From IMG/VR virus record IMGVR_UViG_3300028797_000097: DNA of 64,000 nt; one strand, given 5' to 3'. The notes beneath the pieces are model-generated. The model ran no database searches, was not told the origin of the DNA, and worked only from the letters and a program-made list of their open reading frames with translations. Each line of letters starts with the position of its first letter. The first letter of the stretch is position 1. This DNA is from a virus. Its lineage: Duplodnaviria > Heunggongvirae > Uroviricota > Caudoviricetes. Made by a program: the position numbers and the translations under genes. Shown here in pieces: positions 4,961-48,684 of this stretch.

Positions 4961-5846
4961 TGAGGTCGTAGAATTAACTAAAGAACAAATGGATGAATAT
5001 GTAAAATGTTCTACAGATATTTTTTATTTTTCCAAATACTTTTATATTTTAAGTGATGAAGGTGAAGCGCCAATACATTTAAGAGAATACCAAGAACGTA
5101 TAGTTCGCTGTCTTGTTGGAAAATATTATGATAAAGAAGGTTCTATTAGAAATAATAGAATAATAATGCAAGGGCGACAGACAGGCAAGACTACTCTGGC
5201 CACATTATATATTTTATGGTATGCACTTTTTAATGGAGACAAAACTATCGCTGTTCTGGCTAACAAGGAAGACCAAGCAAAAGAAATTATGTTGAGAATT
5301 CGCTCAGCTATTTTGAAACTTCCACTTTGGTTACAACAAGGAATTAATCCTGATAGAGGTGGTTGGTCAAAAGAAAGTATCGGTTTTGATAACGGAACTA
5401 AGATATTCTGTGCTGCTTCTGGTTCTTCTGCTATTAGAGGTAAATCTGTTGACTTGATGCTTGTCGACGAATTTGCATTCTTGCCTGAAGAAGAAGCTAA
5501 GGACTTCATTAAGTCTGTTTTCCCTACCCAATCTGGTAGAAAGGATGCTATGATGATTCTTATTTCTACACCGCATGGTATGAATGAATTTTATAACATC
5601 TGGATGAAAGCTATTTCTGGTGCAAGTTCTTATGTTCCTGCAAAGATTCAATGGTATGAAATTCCTGGAAGAGATGAAGCTTGGAAGAAGAGAATGATTC
5701 GAGACTTCGGTATTCAGATGTTCCAACAGGAATATGCTTGTTTAACTGGAGAACATAAAATAACAGTTCGATCCGAGGAAGGAATCGAACTAACGGAACC
5801 GATTTCAAAACTATATGAACTTTGGATGGACGGTTTCTTAAGATAA
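4926..5846 (+). CDS. terL: Terminase large subunit, ATPase domain only (gp17-like N-terminal domain, 306 aa)
   Basis: Walker A QGRQTGKTT, Walker B DLMLVDEFAF, coupling motif ILISTPHG and the FQQEYACL motif match the T4 gp17 ATPase. The ORF stops where the RNase-H-like nuclease domain would start. Confidence 0.8.
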   Translation: MFQKTAELRGHNEVVELTKEQMDEYVKCSTDIFYFSKYFYILSDEGEAPIHLREYQERIVRCLVGKYYDKEGSIRNNRIIMQGRQTGKTTLATLYILWYALFNGDKTIAVLANKEDQAKEIMLRIRSAILKLPLWLQQGINPDRGGWSKESIGFDNGTKIFCAASGSSAIRGKSVDLMLVDEFAFLPEEEAKDFIKSVFPTQSGRKDAMMILISTPHGMNEFYNIWMKAISGASSYVPAKIQWYEIPGRDEAWKKRMIRDFGIQMFQQEYACLTGEHKITVRSEEGIELTEPISKLYELWMDGFLR

Positions 5847-44062: not shown

Positions 44063-44245
44063 ATGCAAAAAACAAAAATTGATATCGTAGTATTTGTAGT
44101 TATTTTTATTTTCGTATTTAGTTTAATGATATTTGGATGTAGTTCTGAAAGTTCTACTTCTCCTGAAGATATGTATCAGAAGTGTATTACTGTTAACGAA
44201 GAAAATCCAGATGCATGTGACCAAGAATTTACAATATATAAATGA
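44063..44245 (+). CDS. Small lipoprotein (60 aa)
   Basis: ATG 44063 lies within the TTG-start ORF listed at 44045. Hydrophobic signal with IFGC, then an acidic Cys-containing mature part. Confidence 0.45.
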   Translation: MQKTKIDIVVFVVIFIFVFSLMIFGCSSESSTSPEDMYQKCITVNEENPDACDQEFTIYK

Positions 44246-44724
44246 ATTATTTAAAAACATATTTCGCAATTATTGCCAAAGCGGCAGGGAGAGAGCCATC
44301 GATATTATATGATAAGCATCATATAATTCCTCAGTCATTGGGTGGTCCAGACGTGCCTACGAACTGGATTTATTTAACCCCTAGGGAACATATGATTGCA
44401 CATCATTTGCTTGCCAGAGCTTATCCAGACGTCGAATTATTGCAGTCTGGATTTAACCTGAAGAAAGTCTGTATTAAGTATTATGACTATTATAGATGGT
44501 CTATGAGGTTAAAAGACTTAGCAGGTATGATAGAATATAGTAAGAATAAAAAAGAGATTGTAACGCGTTTAAGAGTGCTTCTGGACGCAATTGGTGATGT
44601 AGACCTAGATAAACATATTCCGGTAAAACAACAGCCTAATATGGTCAAATCTAAAGCACCAGCAGTTACTGAAAAAACTGAAAAAATAGAAACTAAAAAA
44701 GGAAAAAAGAAATGCAAAGAATAA
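44242..44724 (+). CDS. HNH homing-endonuclease-like protein
   Basis: DKHHIIPQSLGGPDVPTNWIYLTPREHMIAHH (HNH H-N-H core). Located upstream of nrdD, a common homing-endonuclease context in T4-like phages. Confidence 0.75.
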   Translation: MNYLKTYFAIIAKAAGREPSILYDKHHIIPQSLGGPDVPTNWIYLTPREHMIAHHLLARAYPDVELLQSGFNLKKVCIKYYDYYRWSMRLKDLAGMIEYSKNKKEIVTRLRVLLDAIGDVDLDKHIPVKQQPNMVKSKAPAVTEKTEKIETKKGKKKCKE

Positions 44725-44915: not shown

Positions 44916-44938
44916 ATAAAAATTTACAAATTAATTTA

Positions 44939-44968
44939 AACTATGCAAAATTTTGCATAGTTTTTTTT
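44939..44968 (+). terminator. Rho-independent terminator (aactatgcaa/ttgcatagtt) plus T8
   Basis: Perfect 10-bp stem followed by a T-run. Confidence 0.6.
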
Positions 44969-45188
44969 ATATTTGATATGAAATTTGTAACGTAAAAAAT
45001 AATAAATAATTATATTTGTCGGTTGAAGTTTATGTTAAATCTTAGTGAAAAAATTTCTCAAAAATGTAGCTTTAAAATAGTAAAGGCTACATTTTTCATT
45101 GTGCTATAAATATAAAACCGATAAAGAAAATGAAAGTTATTAGTGTTGTGAATTAAATGTTTATTGAGCGTTTATAAAGAGGAAATAG

Positions 45189-47660
45189 ATGATTAAAAAC
45201 GTAATTAAGCGAGATAATCGCAGACGAAAATTCAACATTGCAAAAGTATATACAGCCATAGAAAATGCATTTAAATCAATAAATGAAAAATATACAGAAG
45301 AAGGTATAGACCAATTAGTTGATGAAGTAGTCGAGAAGATTTCCGCAAATGATGCCAAGTCAGCAAGAGTTGAAGATATTCAGAATGTTATTGAAAAGAC
45401 ATTGATGAATAGCGGATTCGGAACAGTTGCTAAGGCATTTATTTTATATAGAGACGAACGTAACCGTGCACGTGAAACAAAATCAGAAATTGTAAAGACC
45501 ATTAAGGAAATTACAGAGTCTGATATTAAAAGTTCGAATATTTTAAGAGACAATGCAAACGAATCTGGTGCTACTCCTGCTGGAACATACGGTAAGATTG
45601 CATCTGAAACGAATAAGATGTATAACCTGTTGAATAACATCAACAGAAAGTATGCACAGGAACATAAGGACGGACATTTACATATCCATGACCTTAACCA
45701 GTATAATTTGACATTCAACTGCTTGTTTGCTCCAGTTGGAAAGTTATTGAAGAACGGTTTTGACTCTGGAACTGGTTTCTTACGTTCCCCGAAGTCAATC
45801 CAGACTGCAGCAGCATTGACAGCAGTTATTCTTCAGCTCCAGTCCAACCAGCAATATGGTGGTATCGCTGATGATAATCTCGATTTTGATTTAGCACCGT
45901 TTGTCGATATTTCATTTAGAAAGAATCTTAAGGAAGAATTAGAAAGATATATAGAATATAATCCAGATCATGAAGAAATGACCAATCTTGATGAAGTTGC
46001 AACAGCTTCTATGAACTGGCCTTCTGCACTTCTTTATACTAAGTTCCCTAAGATTTGTGTTATTAAGGCAATTCAGAAGACAGATGATGATACACATCAG
46101 GCTATGGAAGGTCTTATTGGTAATTTGAATTCTTTACAGTCTCGTTCTGGAAACCAAGTTCCATTTAGTTCTTTGAACTTCGGTCTTAATACTTCTAATT
46201 GTGGTCGTATGATTAGCAAGAATCTTATTAAGTCTCAGATGGAAGGTCTCGGTGACGGATTGACAGCAATTTTCCCAATCTTGATTTTCAAGTTGATGGA
46301 AGGTTACACAAAGAATCCAGAAGATCCTAACTATGATTTGTATCTCGACTCTATTAAGTGTCTTGCTCGTAGATTCTACCCGAACTTTGTAAAGGTCGAT
46401 AGTTCCTTCAATAAGCCATACATCAAGTATGAAACTAAGGAAGTTGAAATTCTTGAAAATGTTATTGGTGTTAAGGTTCGTGGTAAAGATGAAGCAACAA
46501 TTATCCCAATGCAAGACCAGAAGTTTGATAAGTTTGTCTATCAGTATGATGTAGGTCAAGGTGACTATTGGGAAATTGAAGAAATTTCTGGAAATAAGTT
46601 GAAGTTGAAGAAACTCATTGAAAATACAACTATTTCTACTATGGGTTGTAGAACCAGAGTTATTGGTAATATCAATGGTGCTGAACAGACAACTGGTAGA
46701 GGTAACTTTGCATTCCATACAATTAACCTTCCTAGACTTGCTATTGAAGCTCATATCGCAGCAAAGGATGAAGAAGAACGTAAGACTATTTTCTTCGAAA
46801 AGCTTGCTGAAATGCTTGAAGATGCAAAGGGAAGTTTGCTTGACAGATTCGCATTGATTTCTAACAAGACATATGAGAATTTCCCATTTACTATGCAACA
46901 GGGTCTTTATCTCACATCTGATGACCAACCGCATGAAGTTACTGATAAGATTGGTGAAGTTCTTAAACAGGCTTCGTTGTCAATCGGTTACGTCGGTCTT
47001 GCTGAAACCATGTTACTCTTGACAGGTAAGACTTATGGTGTTGACCATGAAATTGATGATTATGCTTTCTCTATTGTAAAGACTATTCGTGAATTTGTTG
47101 ATAAGACACAGAAGGAAACTCATTTGAACTGGTCTTGTTTCGCTACTCCAGCTGAAGCAGTTGCAGGTCGTTTTGCTAACATCGATAAAAATCTTTTCCA
47201 GAATGAAAAGAAGCTTGCTGATGTAGATTTACAGAGAGTCTTCGGTAAGGGTTATTACACAAATAGCCACATGCTTGATTATTCTTTGGAAACTACTCTT
47301 GAAAACAAGATTAAGATGGAAGCTCCATATCACAAGATTACAAATGCTGGTCATATCTTCTATTACAAGTTGAATGGTGACTTGTCTAAGAATCTTGAAG
47401 CGGTCAAGGCAACTATTGATGCCATGTATGAAGGTGACCTTGGTTATTTCACTTGCACATTTGACAGTGATACTTGTACTAAGTGCCATTTCCATGGAAT
47501 CATCAATAATGAATGTCCATGTTGTGGTAACAAGAATGAAGACGAGATTATTCGTGTTAGAAGAATTACCGGATATTTGACTGGTTCTCCTAAGAAGACT
47601 ATTTTTAAGTCTTGGAATGATGGAAAATTAGCAGAATTGAGAGACCGTCATAATATTTAA
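45189..47660 (+). CDS. nrdD: Anaerobic ribonucleoside-triphosphate reductase NrdD (class III, glycyl-radical)
   Basis: ATP-cone N-terminus. C-terminal Zn ribbon CTKCHFHG...CPCCG and glycyl-radical motif RVRRITGYL. Confidence 0.9.
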   Translation: MIKNVIKRDNRRRKFNIAKVYTAIENAFKSINEKYTEEGIDQLVDEVVEKISANDAKSARVEDIQNVIEKTLMNSGFGTVAKAFILYRDERNRARETKSEIVKTIKEITESDIKSSNILRDNANESGATPAGTYGKIASETNKMYNLLNNINRKYAQEHKDGHLHIHDLNQYNLTFNCLFAPVGKLLKNGFDSGTGFLRSPKSIQTAAALTAVILQLQSNQQYGGIADDNLDFDLAPFVDISFRKNLKEELERYIEYNPDHEEMTNLDEVATASMNWPSALLYTKFPKICVIKAIQKTDDDTHQAMEGLIGNLNSLQSRSGNQVPFSSLNFGLNTSNCGRMISKNLIKSQMEGLGDGLTAIFPILIFKLMEGYTKNPEDPNYDLYLDSIKCLARRFYPNFVKVDSSFNKPYIKYETKEVEILENVIGVKVRGKDEATIIPMQDQKFDKFVYQYDVGQGDYWEIEEISGNKLKLKKLIENTTISTMGCRTRVIGNINGAEQTTGRGNFAFHTINLPRLAIEAHIAAKDEEERKTIFFEKLAEMLEDAKGSLLDRFALISNKTYENFPFTMQQGLYLTSDDQPHEVTDKIGEVLKQASLSIGYVGLAETMLLLTGKTYGVDHEIDDYAFSIVKTIREFVDKTQKETHLNWSCFATPAEAVAGRFANIDKNLFQNEKKLADVDLQRVFGKGYYTNSHMLDYSLETTLENKIKMEAPYHKITNAGHIFYYKLNGDLSKNLEAVKATIDAMYEGDLGYFTCTFDSDTCTKCHFHGIINNECPCCGNKNEDEIIRVRRITGYLTGSPKKTIFKSWNDGKLAELRDRHNI

Positions 47661-47682
47661 TAAAAACAACTAGAAAAAAATC

Positions 47683-47711
47683 ATACGGGTTGAAAAACCG
47701 TATGGTTTTTC
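47683..47711 (+). terminator. Terminator hairpin (catacgg/ccgtatg) plus T-run, followed by CTATCTTT
   Basis: 7-bp stem with a 9-nt loop. Confidence 0.55.
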
Positions 47712-47734
47712 TATCTTTAAGCAAAAGGAAGCGA

Positions 47735-48028
47735 ATGTTAGATACTTTAATGTTAATCTGTGGTTTTTGTGGAGCTGGTGCTTTTGCAGTTTGTTCATTA
47801 CCACAAGTTATTAAAGCTTATAAAACTAAGTCGACAGGTGATATAAGTATTTTCTTTATTATCTTGTCAATTATCGGTAATTTATGTAGTGCTGCTTATA
47901 TATTCTATACTAATTATATAAGTGGAATGTGGCAATATCCGCAATATGTAAATTATACTTTGGCAACTATACTTATATTTATCCTTCTCGGGTTAAAACT
48001 AAAATATGATAAGGAAAATAAAAAATGA
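47735..48028 (+). CDS. PQ-loop / SemiSWEET-like small membrane protein (97 aa, three predicted TM segments)
   Basis: RBS aaaggaag before ATG 47735. PQ motif CSLPQVIKAYKTKSTGDISIFFIILSIIGN. The stop overlaps the next start (ATGA). Confidence 0.5.
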   Translation: MLDTLMLICGFCGAGAFAVCSLPQVIKAYKTKSTGDISIFFIILSIIGNLCSAAYIFYTNYISGMWQYPQYVNYTLATILIFILLGLKLKYDKENKK

Positions 48029-48684
48029 GTATAATGGATCTTATCGGTGTTCAAAGAGGAATTGATTTTGAACATAGTTTACCAACTGTAATGCGATATA
48101 AACCTGATATAAGAGAAGGTTATGAATATGGCAGTTTTGAACCTAAATATGGTCATACGCCAAATTGGCAACCTTTATGTAGTAATTCTTCAGACTTATA
48201 TAAAGAAATCGTTTTAGCATGTAAGCAGGTTGCAAAAGTTACAGAAATGAAAAATCCAATAGGTAATGATCCTTTTTGGCATCGTAGTGGACCTGAACGT
48301 GCAGGAACGATTGTTTCTAAGATAATACAGCTTTGTAATGATATTGCTATTGCTACTCGACAAGGTCAAGGCAATGTTATTGTATTAAATACTAAGATGT
48401 ATGATTTATTACGTGAGTTAACATTTGGTTTTATGGATTGCCCATTTATTTCTGAATCTGCTCCAGGCGTATTAAAGATTGTTGGAAGAGATGCTTTTAA
48501 AATGGATTTTGACGATTATTCAAATTATCCAGAAGCTATTATGACATATCATTCTAATAATTCGTGTGTATGTGGTGCTATTGCAGCACTTAGTCCTACC
48601 GAGACTTATTTTTCAATTAATACTGATATGGAAGGAACAGAGAATTATTATAGACTTTTAAGGGTAAAAGATGAATTACAGTAA
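48025..48684 (+). CDS. Paralog A of an uncharacterised 220-aa family flanking nrdG
   Basis: Homologous to 49152..49823 (M.I.DLI.VQ; GTIVSKIIQLCNDIAIATRQGQGNVIVLN vs CGVLLTNLMKECNSIRTSTRRCAGNYILIN; C-terminal YYRL). Confidence 0.5.
   Translation: MSIMDLIGVQRGIDFEHSLPTVMRYKPDIREGYEYGSFEPKYGHTPNWQPLCSNSSDLYKEIVLACKQVAKVTEMKNPIGNDPFWHRSGPERAGTIVSKIIQLCNDIAIATRQGQGNVIVLNTKMYDLLRELTFGFMDCPFISESAPGVLKIVGRDAFKMDFDDYSNYPEAIMTYHSNNSCVCGAIAALSPTETYFSINTDMEGTENYYRLLRVKDELQ

Follow-up and report, generated by a model that had tools for sequence, protein, structure and literature searches.

The window analysed here is a stretch of 64,000 nucleotides of the IMG/VR virus record IMGVR_UViG_3300028797_000097 (Caudoviricetes), whose source is a very large gut phage with a genome of several hundred kb. 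At positions 47735-48028 on its plus strand it carries a gene for a 97-amino-acid (aa) PQ-loop protein with a SemiSWEET fold (hereafter the PQ protein), assigned from the Pfam family PF04193, from profile and fold matches to SemiSWEETs and from the ratio of nonsynonymous to synonymous substitution rates (dN/dS). The gene runs from an ATG at 47735-47737 to a TGA at 48026-48028, and inspection of the sequence places a Shine-Dalgarno-like AAGGAAG (47725-47731, plus strand) 3 nt 5' of the start; aligned relatives show an AGGA-type purine-rich core before theirs, with 0 invariant columns in the stretch. A longer version beginning at a TTG at 47690, taken from a mechanical list of open reading frames (ORFs), was rejected because that codon lies inside an upstream hairpin and all close homologues begin at the same MLD. 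The ORF and start given in an earlier note on this DNA are therefore upheld.

The PQ-loop gene and its operon

The protein matches PF04193 over residues 7-61 (E=2.1e-13; 50.2 bits against a cutoff of 22), as do its homologues in precomputed assignments, and the PQ-loop motif that the earlier note had announced is found as LPQVIKAYKTKS. The SWEET family MtN3_slv (PF03083) scores 16.9 bits, under its cutoff of 23.7, and NMN_transporter (PF04973; PnuC/PnuN) gives no Pfam match at E<=0.1. In PHROGs the protein corresponds to one family of unknown function, phrog_25992. A search of 1.84 billion representative proteins yielded 466 at E<=1e-3, of which 51 reached E<=1e-10; the subfamily is small and distinct.

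About a dozen viral PQ-loop proteins, one of them labelled SemiSWEET, occur in BFVD (from giant viruses and uncultured phages), so a viral PQ-loop family as such was already known. The view that phage SemiSWEETs are unusual thus needs qualifying for viruses at large and stands for cultured phages: tblastn of the PQ protein and of one relative (P0062) against 50,697 INPHARED phage records, and megablast of the 5.6-kb stretch from nrdD to the radical-SAM gene against the same records, gave no match, and a second relative (P0023) matched a single record, an unannotated 642-kb uncultured phage with an uninformative gene context. A literature search found no earlier description pairing a SemiSWEET or PQ-loop protein with a phage, a nucleoside or a ribonucleotide reductase (RNR). 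What is new with respect to the searchable literature is a subfamily with a remodelled pocket, its tie to RNR and thymidylate genes and a fusion to chorismate mutase.

The PQ gene directly follows nrdD (45189-47660, plus strand), which encodes an 823-aa class III (anaerobic) RNR with Pfam matches to NRDD (500 bits), ATP-cone and Gly_radical. Between the two genes lies a conserved hairpin (47680-47711, plus strand) with arms ATCATACGG and CCGTATGGT, followed by TTTTTC, which was detected by a terminator scan (match at 47692-47711) and by RNA folding (-19.3 kcal/mol, z = -3.84). Its stem is preserved through compensatory changes of CGG/CCG to CAG/CTG in L001, L002 and L015, and its TTTTTCTATCTTT tail is invariant across relatives; it is probably an attenuator or terminator that reduces downstream expression relative to nrdD. 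Immediately downstream of the PQ gene, the ATG of a 219-aa ORF (48025-48684, plus strand) overlaps the PQ stop codon (ATGA) and is followed by nrdG (48671-49183, plus strand; Fer4_12 165.7 bits, phrog_626 6.6e-52), coding for the 170-aa radical S-adenosylmethionine (radical-SAM) activase of NrdD. A position between nrdD and nrdG, as first described for the gene, is accordingly exact on the nrdD side, with the 219-aa ORF separating the gene from nrdG on the other.

The nrdG gene overlaps both of its neighbours, the 219-aa ORF and a 223-aa ORF (49152-49823, plus strand), which are paralogues of each other (28% identity, E=2e-20). A second radical-SAM protein of 309 aa (49827-50756, plus strand; Radical_SAM 35.2 bits, Fer4_12 30 bits) begins 3 nt after the 223-aa ORF, and a 66-aa ORF rich in Gly, Cys and Tyr (50753-50953, plus strand) overlaps its end as the last cistron, so that the string reads PQ gene, 219-aa ORF, nrdG, 223-aa ORF, radical-SAM gene, 66-aa ORF. 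According to the terminator scan, a 13-bp bidirectional terminator-like hairpin (50956-50986) closes the unit, and a matching hairpin lies upstream of nrdD (44938-44963). From this arrangement, nrdD to the 66-aa ORF would be transcribed as a single unit, attenuated after nrdD and translationally coupled from the PQ gene onwards.

The PQ gene is under strong constraint, with dN/dS of 0.05-0.10 wherever dS could be estimated against 13 relatives, and several pairs combine saturated synonymous sites with a protein difference of no more than 12%; given such ratios and synonymous sites near saturation, it is not a chance ORF. Its dN is roughly 2-18 times lower than that of NrdG in the same genome pairs. 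Seventeen homologues at 81-95% identity lie on metagenomic contigs of up to 425 kb, and further close loci came from IMG/VR, plus two from goat-gut metagenome-assembled genomes (MAGs) labelled Methanobrevibacter. In all of about 30 related loci, on contigs of up to 679 kb, the PQ gene adjoins nrdD, nrdG or both, in the orders nrdD-PQ-nrdG, nrdD-PQ-(219- or 252-aa ORF)-nrdG or nrdD-homing endonuclease-nrdG-PQ, the last with a 7-8-nt overlap of nrdG and PQ. Some relatives have a 724-aa NrdD of a different lineage next to NrdG and PQ proteins that are still similar: in L006, L007 and L016 identity to the window proteins is 24-26% for NrdD, 84-85% for PQ and 57-61% for NrdG. This suggests that nrdD has been replaced in some relatives, and the link to nrdG has therefore outlived both rearrangement and nrdD replacement.

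Fold and pocket of the PQ protein

An AlphaFold2 model from a 50-sequence alignment reached a predicted local distance difference test score (pLDDT) of 90.8 and a predicted template-modelling score (pTM) of 0.75; an earlier model from 15 near-identical sequences (pLDDT 64) was not used. The model bears out the three transmembrane (TM) segments previously proposed, with TM1 formed by residues 2-18 and 22-31 (broken at residues 19-21 and kinked at P23-Q24), TM2 by residues 39-63 and TM3 by residues 68-96. The positive-inside rule puts the basic TM1-TM2 loop (KAYKTKS) and the C-terminal tail (KLKYDKENKK) on the predicted cytoplasmic side, which would leave the TM2-TM3 loop in the periplasm.

In a Foldseek search of the PDB, ranks 1-11 are all SemiSWEET chains (target-normalised TM-score 0.63-0.86, root-mean-square deviation 2.0-4.1 Å), followed by the KDEL receptor, cystinosin, SWEET13, the mitochondrial pyruvate carrier and PnuC, the last (4QTN) a weak, partial match with a probability of 0.30. 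Profile searches, which the earlier note had recommended, agree with the fold: 15 close homologues were enough for a profile that aligned with the whole length of the Thermodesulfovibrio SemiSWEET 4RNG (E=1.5e-6), and a profile of 50 relatives matched five SemiSWEET chain sequences full-length at E=4e-11 to 9e-8, representing three proteins from Thermodesulfovibrio (4RNG, 4e-11), Leptospira (4QNC, 1.6e-9) and Bradyrhizobium. The E. coli SemiSWEET was matched over TM1-TM2 only (2e-7), and cystinosin came next at about 1e-5.

Aligned by profile to 4QNC, the PQ protein has P23-Q24, D36/S38 and Y55 where LbSemiSWEET has its hinge P19-Q20, its gate D32/S34 and Y51. The 50 relatives all have P23 and Y55, and at least 90% of them share Q24 and S38; D36 is invariant among close relatives only. 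The LbSemiSWEET residues T13, W48 and N64, in turn, align with F17, S52 and Y74. These three are the glucose-contact residues of LbSemiSWEET, the gate and hinge roles being described in the same source, and Trp is the most conserved TM2 residue of SemiSWEETs (PMC5972207). The invariant Y74 is preceded by a nearly invariant N73, one residue off the LbSemiSWEET Asn position, and the TM2-TM3 loop contains a six-residue insertion, consensus G-x-W-Q-Y-P, which begins the longer consensus G-x-W-Q-Y-P-[QL]-Y-x-N-Y; residues 33 to 79 as a whole are almost invariant.

As judged from these alignments, the protein keeps the moving parts of a SemiSWEET around an altered sugar pocket. It resembles bacterial SemiSWEETs (4QNC, 4RNG, 4X5M, 9KAX) in its length of about 90-100 aa, in folding as a three-helix bundle whose TM1 is kinked at PQ, and in its D/S cytoplasmic gate and TM2 tyrosine, and differs from them in its replaced sugar contacts, loop insertion, MtN3_slv score under the cutoff, viral host and setting in an RNR operon. 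The label SemiSWEET-like therefore holds for the fold, which both the profile and the Foldseek matches support, and fails for a SemiSWEET in the strict sense, given the MtN3_slv score and the sugar contacts. With eukaryotic PQ-loop carriers such as cystinosin and PQLC2 the protein shares PF04193 and weak profile and fold matches to cystinosin; unlike these lysosomal amino-acid carriers, which have seven TM helices in a double repeat and are in some cases proton-coupled, it is a single repeat whose position 49 is Asn and not an acidic residue.

These residues bear directly on whether the gene encodes an ordinary SemiSWEET sugar uniporter, in which case it would be an auxiliary metabolic gene that provides the infected cell with energy or pentoses by importing glucose, sucrose or another sugar, and its place beside nrdDG would be incidental. 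The closest solved relatives are indeed sugar-carrying SemiSWEETs, viral proteins of this fold are so annotated in BFVD, and bacterial SemiSWEETs occur in varied carbohydrate operons (PMC5972207). Set against this are the replacement of all three LbSemiSWEET glucose contacts, including the TM2 Trp, the MtN3_slv score and the finding of no sugar-metabolism gene beside any viral member examined, and we regard a sugar uniporter as improbable. Since the sugar contacts are all replaced, the cargo is probably not the glucose or sucrose of characterised SemiSWEETs.

Viral relatives and the proposed function

Distant viral PQ proteins, 28-58% identical to that of the window, occur in varied gene neighbourhoods. 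In the L023-type clade, whose proteins of about 145 aa have a fourth, C-terminal TM helix, the PQ gene lies with a dUTPase two genes upstream, a weak ThyX-like ORF, a phrog_894 endolysin-like gene starting 28 nt after it and a patatin. A clade with 133-aa proteins has the order patatin, PQ, faint ThyX-like ORF and phosphoesterase, with an endolysin-like gene two genes upstream. The "ThyX-like" neighbours, of 214 and 177 aa, score below the Pfam threshold (19.5 bits; "faint") and constitute weak evidence. Elsewhere, a dUTPase lies directly upstream of PQ (L059), a family B polymerase precedes it and a dCMP deaminase directly follows (L031), a deoxynucleoside kinase lies about 0.9 kb upstream on a giant-virus contig (L035), and ThyX is found two genes upstream (L060). 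In L061 the small and large subunits of a class I RNR are followed by a PQ gene overlapping the stop codon, and in L120 the order is ThyX, a 54-aa ORF, PQ and an intein-containing class II-like RNR starting at the PQ stop. A temperate phage (L053/L055) has tail genes, PQ (169-176 aa), a DUF3310 protein, a Peptidase_M15_3 protein and an integrase; the DUF3310 protein of L053, which is gp1.7-like and directly downstream of PQ, matches five PHROG "nucleotide kinase" families.

In total, an enzyme of the deoxynucleoside triphosphate (dNTP) pathway lies within about three genes of PQ in 10 of the 18 viral lineages. Binomial tail probabilities are 1e-5, 9e-4 and 5e-3 at background rates of 0.12, 0.20 and 0.25, which are assumed rates that module clustering would raise. 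It is this adjacency of relatives to class I RNR, class II-like RNR with ThyX, dUTPase, dCMP deaminase, deoxynucleoside kinase and nucleotide kinase that points to a nucleoside-type cargo. These recurring neighbours share a single pathway, dNTP production, and a riboside- or base-type precursor trapped by phosphorylation would suit most of the contexts.

We consider it likely that the protein is a functional small-solute carrier of SemiSWEET type, since its hinge and gate are conserved, it evolves slowly and some relatives have it fused to a cytoplasmic enzyme, all of which argues for a working carrier and not for a generic membrane-damaging peptide. From these features and from solved SemiSWEETs we infer that it would be a small carrier in the inner membrane, two copies of which may pair into an alternating-access pore through which a small solute would move down its gradient with no energy spent. 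Presumably expressed together with the phage anaerobic RNR system, behind the attenuator after nrdD, it could admit a nucleoside-type DNA precursor, the likeliest cargo being a ribo- or deoxyribonucleoside or a base, which would enter the infected cell passively, be trapped by phosphorylation and so supplement dNTP supply for a genome of several hundred kb. Passive carriage of such a nucleoside-type precursor, by analogy with PnuN, is our leading proposal, which we advance tentatively and which may well prove wrong.

The same logic of passive entry and trapping has been proposed for PnuC/NadR and PnuN; members of the Pnu family carry nicotinamide riboside, thiamine and riboflavin, and PnuN is predicted to be a deoxynucleoside carrier (PMC7749635). 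A relationship among SWEET, PQ-loop and PnuC transporters is the subject of a published review, as cited in PMC5972207. The likeness to PnuC/PnuN lies in the proposed passive entry of a riboside-type compound, a context linked to nucleotide reduction and salvage, trapping by a kinase and a related fold. Unlike the PQ protein, a three-TM unit that would need to pair, Pnu proteins are single chains of about 230 aa (4QTN) with 7-8 TM helices; there is no sequence-level match between the two, and the PQ protein would thus be an analogue and not a member of the Pnu family.

Several observations weigh against a nucleoside cargo. No dNTP-pathway neighbour was found in 8 of the 18 viral lineages (L026/L054, L036, L051, L052, L056, L057/L058, L122-L124 and L126-L139); L126-L139 were counted here, their HAD phosphatase-like neighbour (Pfam E=0.0085) and exonuclease-like neighbour (no Pfam match) being unconfirmed. 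Phage DNA-metabolism genes cluster, and the association may in part reflect membership of an early-gene module. No nucleoside kinase was detected among the window ORFs scanned with Pfam and PHROGs (about 37 of the 68 ORFs of at least 120 aa), and an endolysin is adjacent or two genes away in two lineages. To our knowledge, nucleoside transport is not among the demonstrated activities of any SemiSWEET or PQ-loop protein, and the proposed cargo is thus read from neighbours only. In a Bacteroidales MAG (L048, L049; gene 5001-5294) a cellular PQ relative follows thiC, thiD/E, thiE, thiG and thiH, which suggests a carrier of thiamine or a thiamine precursor, and a SemiSWEET has also been reported beside thiamin pyrophosphokinase (PMC5972207). 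Furthermore, in 36 metagenomic clusters of a single related clade, most with G-E in TM2 and at least two of them phage loci, the 101 proteins encoded nearby show no dominant theme (MscS in 4, RNR in 2, FolD in 1), and the nucleotide link is therefore a feature of viral members and not of the whole family. Finally, some close relatives are fused to an apparently catalytic chorismate mutase, which would point to a different class of metabolite.

The endolysin neighbours are central to an alternative in which the protein is holin- or pinholin-like, opening or depolarising the membrane at a set time for an endolysin, its place beside nrdDG being due to chance. It resembles class I (three-TM) phage holins in its small size, three TM helices and short, charged, basic C-terminal tail, features that are not specific. 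In addition, the L023-type homologue with its extra TM helix is followed by the endolysin-like gene and the patatin, and in the temperate phage the PQ protein (169 aa), near the Peptidase_M15_3 gene, is the only multi-TM protein in the vicinity of the endolysin. Against this, the hinge and gate residues of a transporter are conserved from phages to bacteria, and we know of no holin with a PQ-loop signature; the PQ protein evolves more slowly than NrdG, whereas holins usually diverge fast; and a fused cytoplasmic enzyme in close relatives fits a holin poorly. In each of the two lineages with lysis neighbours, a nucleotide enzyme lies no farther from the PQ gene than the endolysin does (dUTPase and ThyX-like in one, nucleotide kinase-like in the other). 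The window gene itself is tied by predicted translational coupling to nrdG-type genes and not to a lysis gene: its neighbours, like those of the close relatives, are nrdD, nrdG and the paralogous ORFs, and tblastn found no homologue of the related clades' endolysins in the window. The holin-like role put forward in the earlier note thus has endolysins near the gene in two other lineages in its favour, with no homologue of those found in the window by tblastn, and we judge it unlikely. If it were nonetheless correct, a transporter fold would have been recruited for lysis.

The chorismate mutase fusion is found in four protein clusters (P0013, P0170-P0172) whose membrane part is 86-95% identical to the window protein and which carry a C-terminal CM_2 domain; their genes occupy the same nrdG-adjacent position on contigs of up to 679 kb (L041-L044; gene 6001-6531 in L041). 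The fused domain matches solved chorismate mutases (1YBZ, 6.8e-10; 1ECM, 3.5e-5), including all of the 1ECM positions R11, R28, K39, D48, R51 and E52, which we take to be catalytic residues of the E. coli enzyme. Chorismate mutase is an obligate dimer, and the fusion is compatible with a PQ-protein dimer without being a test of it. Such a fusion, with its active-site positions matched, would fit a carrier of a carboxylate from the aromatic pathway or of pyruvyl type (chorismate, prephenate or a similar compound) on which the fused enzyme would act directly, and the mitochondrial pyruvate carrier, whose related fold gives weak matches, carries a small carboxylate. This carboxylate reading is quite unlikely for the window gene, which has no CM_2 domain: none of the loci showed a further gene of the aromatic pathway, the RNR, ThyX, dUTPase and kinase neighbours would go unexplained, and the added domain could have been captured by chance or could serve to aid dimerisation. 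Whatever its role, this joining of membrane protein and enzyme in near-identical relatives is an unusual architecture in its own right. The same AroQ-type chorismate mutase domain is matched by phrog_10027, a stand-alone phage family of unknown function.

A solute specific to glycyl-radical or radical-SAM chemistry, either formate imported as the NrdD reductant, as the earlier note had speculated, or 5'-deoxyadenosine exported, would suit an NrdD with an M-G-C thiyl-loop motif (presumably a mark of formate-dependent class III RNRs), an operon with two radical-SAM genes and a Bacteroidales relative that follows the radical-SAM enzymes thiC and thiH, but is very unlikely: relatives lie beside class I and class II-like RNRs, ThyX, dUTPase, dCMP deaminase and kinases, none of them formate-using and with no such radical chemistry nearby, NrdG uses SAM only to activate NrdD and so yields little 5'-deoxyadenosine, and known formate channels are unrelated pentamers. 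As neighbours span all three RNR classes, with their differing reductants and cofactors, an NrdD-specific cargo such as formate is disfavoured.

A carrier of nucleoside-type precursors would have wider consequences. A 2018 survey called the physiological role of prokaryotic SemiSWEETs unknown (PMC5972207), and a pocket-remodelled viral family beside DNA-precursor enzymes offers a specific, testable lead on it. If the cargo is a nucleoside or base, precursor uptake would become part of phage auxiliary metabolism, the substrates known for the fold would include a new class, and the nucleotide supply of several-hundred-kb phages in anaerobic gut habitats would be explained in part. A bolder and more doubtful extension is that the virus-borne, pocket-remodelled branch, with F17, S52, N73-Y74 and the loop insertion, represents an unrecognised class of nucleoside or deoxynucleoside uniporters in viral dNTP-supply modules, together with RNRs of all three classes, ThyX, dUTPase, dCMP deaminase and nucleotide kinases; it would then provide the first physiological role for a prokaryote-type SemiSWEET, with large phages adding import to de novo synthesis.

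Other features of the window and of related loci

Upstream of nrdD, 77 nt 5' of the gene, lies a copy of the motif TATAAATA (45105-45112, plus strand), a candidate promoter element from motif enrichment and the sole copy within the nrd unit. The window has 27 copies of it against 14.6 expected, an enriched count that no shuffle reached, and they often stand 10-40 nt upstream of gene starts, including those of replication genes such as uvsW (example sites 3941, 13200, 16033, 24788, 35158, 39140, 45105 and 53158). We take it to be the T4 late-promoter consensus, and it may act as a promoter here. The window also contains T4-like phage markers (UvsW, UvsX, gp32, a DnaB-type helicase and a homologue of the sheath stabiliser), and an HNH endonuclease ORF lies upstream of nrdD at 44242-44724.

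The solved structure closest to the window NrdD is 8P23 (1.4e-122, aligned in two blocks), presumably the Prevotella copri enzyme, relative to which NrdD has an insertion of roughly 70 aa at about residues 410-480. The 219- and 223-aa ORFs show weak Pfam matches to the C-terminal part of the T4 major capsid protein Gp23; such capsid-like fragments are odd inside an nrd operon, and relatives have a 252-aa version or none (L002, L015). Across the bidirectional terminator, a convergent 203-aa ORF with SGCGSS repeats (50994-51605, minus strand) completes, with the radical-SAM gene and the 66-aa ORF (49827-50953), a layout resembling a radical-SAM peptide-modification pair of the kind found with ribosomally synthesised and post-translationally modified peptides.

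In related loci, homing-endonuclease-like ORFs of 341-345 aa (DUF7487, phrog_3339) lie between nrdD and nrdG (L006, 4487-5512; L041, 4414-5451), and extra insertions of 1.3-2.1 kb are present in the nrd region of L011 and L037/L038; the region is a hotspot for mobile endonucleases. L037 and L038 (JAFQXD010000042.1 and JAFRFB010000097.1), contigs of 173-191 kb with a 98% identical locus, come from the goat-gut MAGs named Methanobrevibacter sp. and are probably phage contigs binned by mistake, given their T4-like phage gene content and an NrdD closest to 8P23, the presumed P. copri enzyme.

Among the more distant relatives, the Bacteroidales subfamily member has G-E in TM2 where others have G-N. 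In L120 (4246-6870) the RNR intein holds a LAGLIDADG domain, and across L023-L034, L045-L047 and L059 a patatin-like phospholipase, the phrog_894 peptidase, a divergent ThyX-like ORF and dUTPase travel with the PQ gene in varying order.

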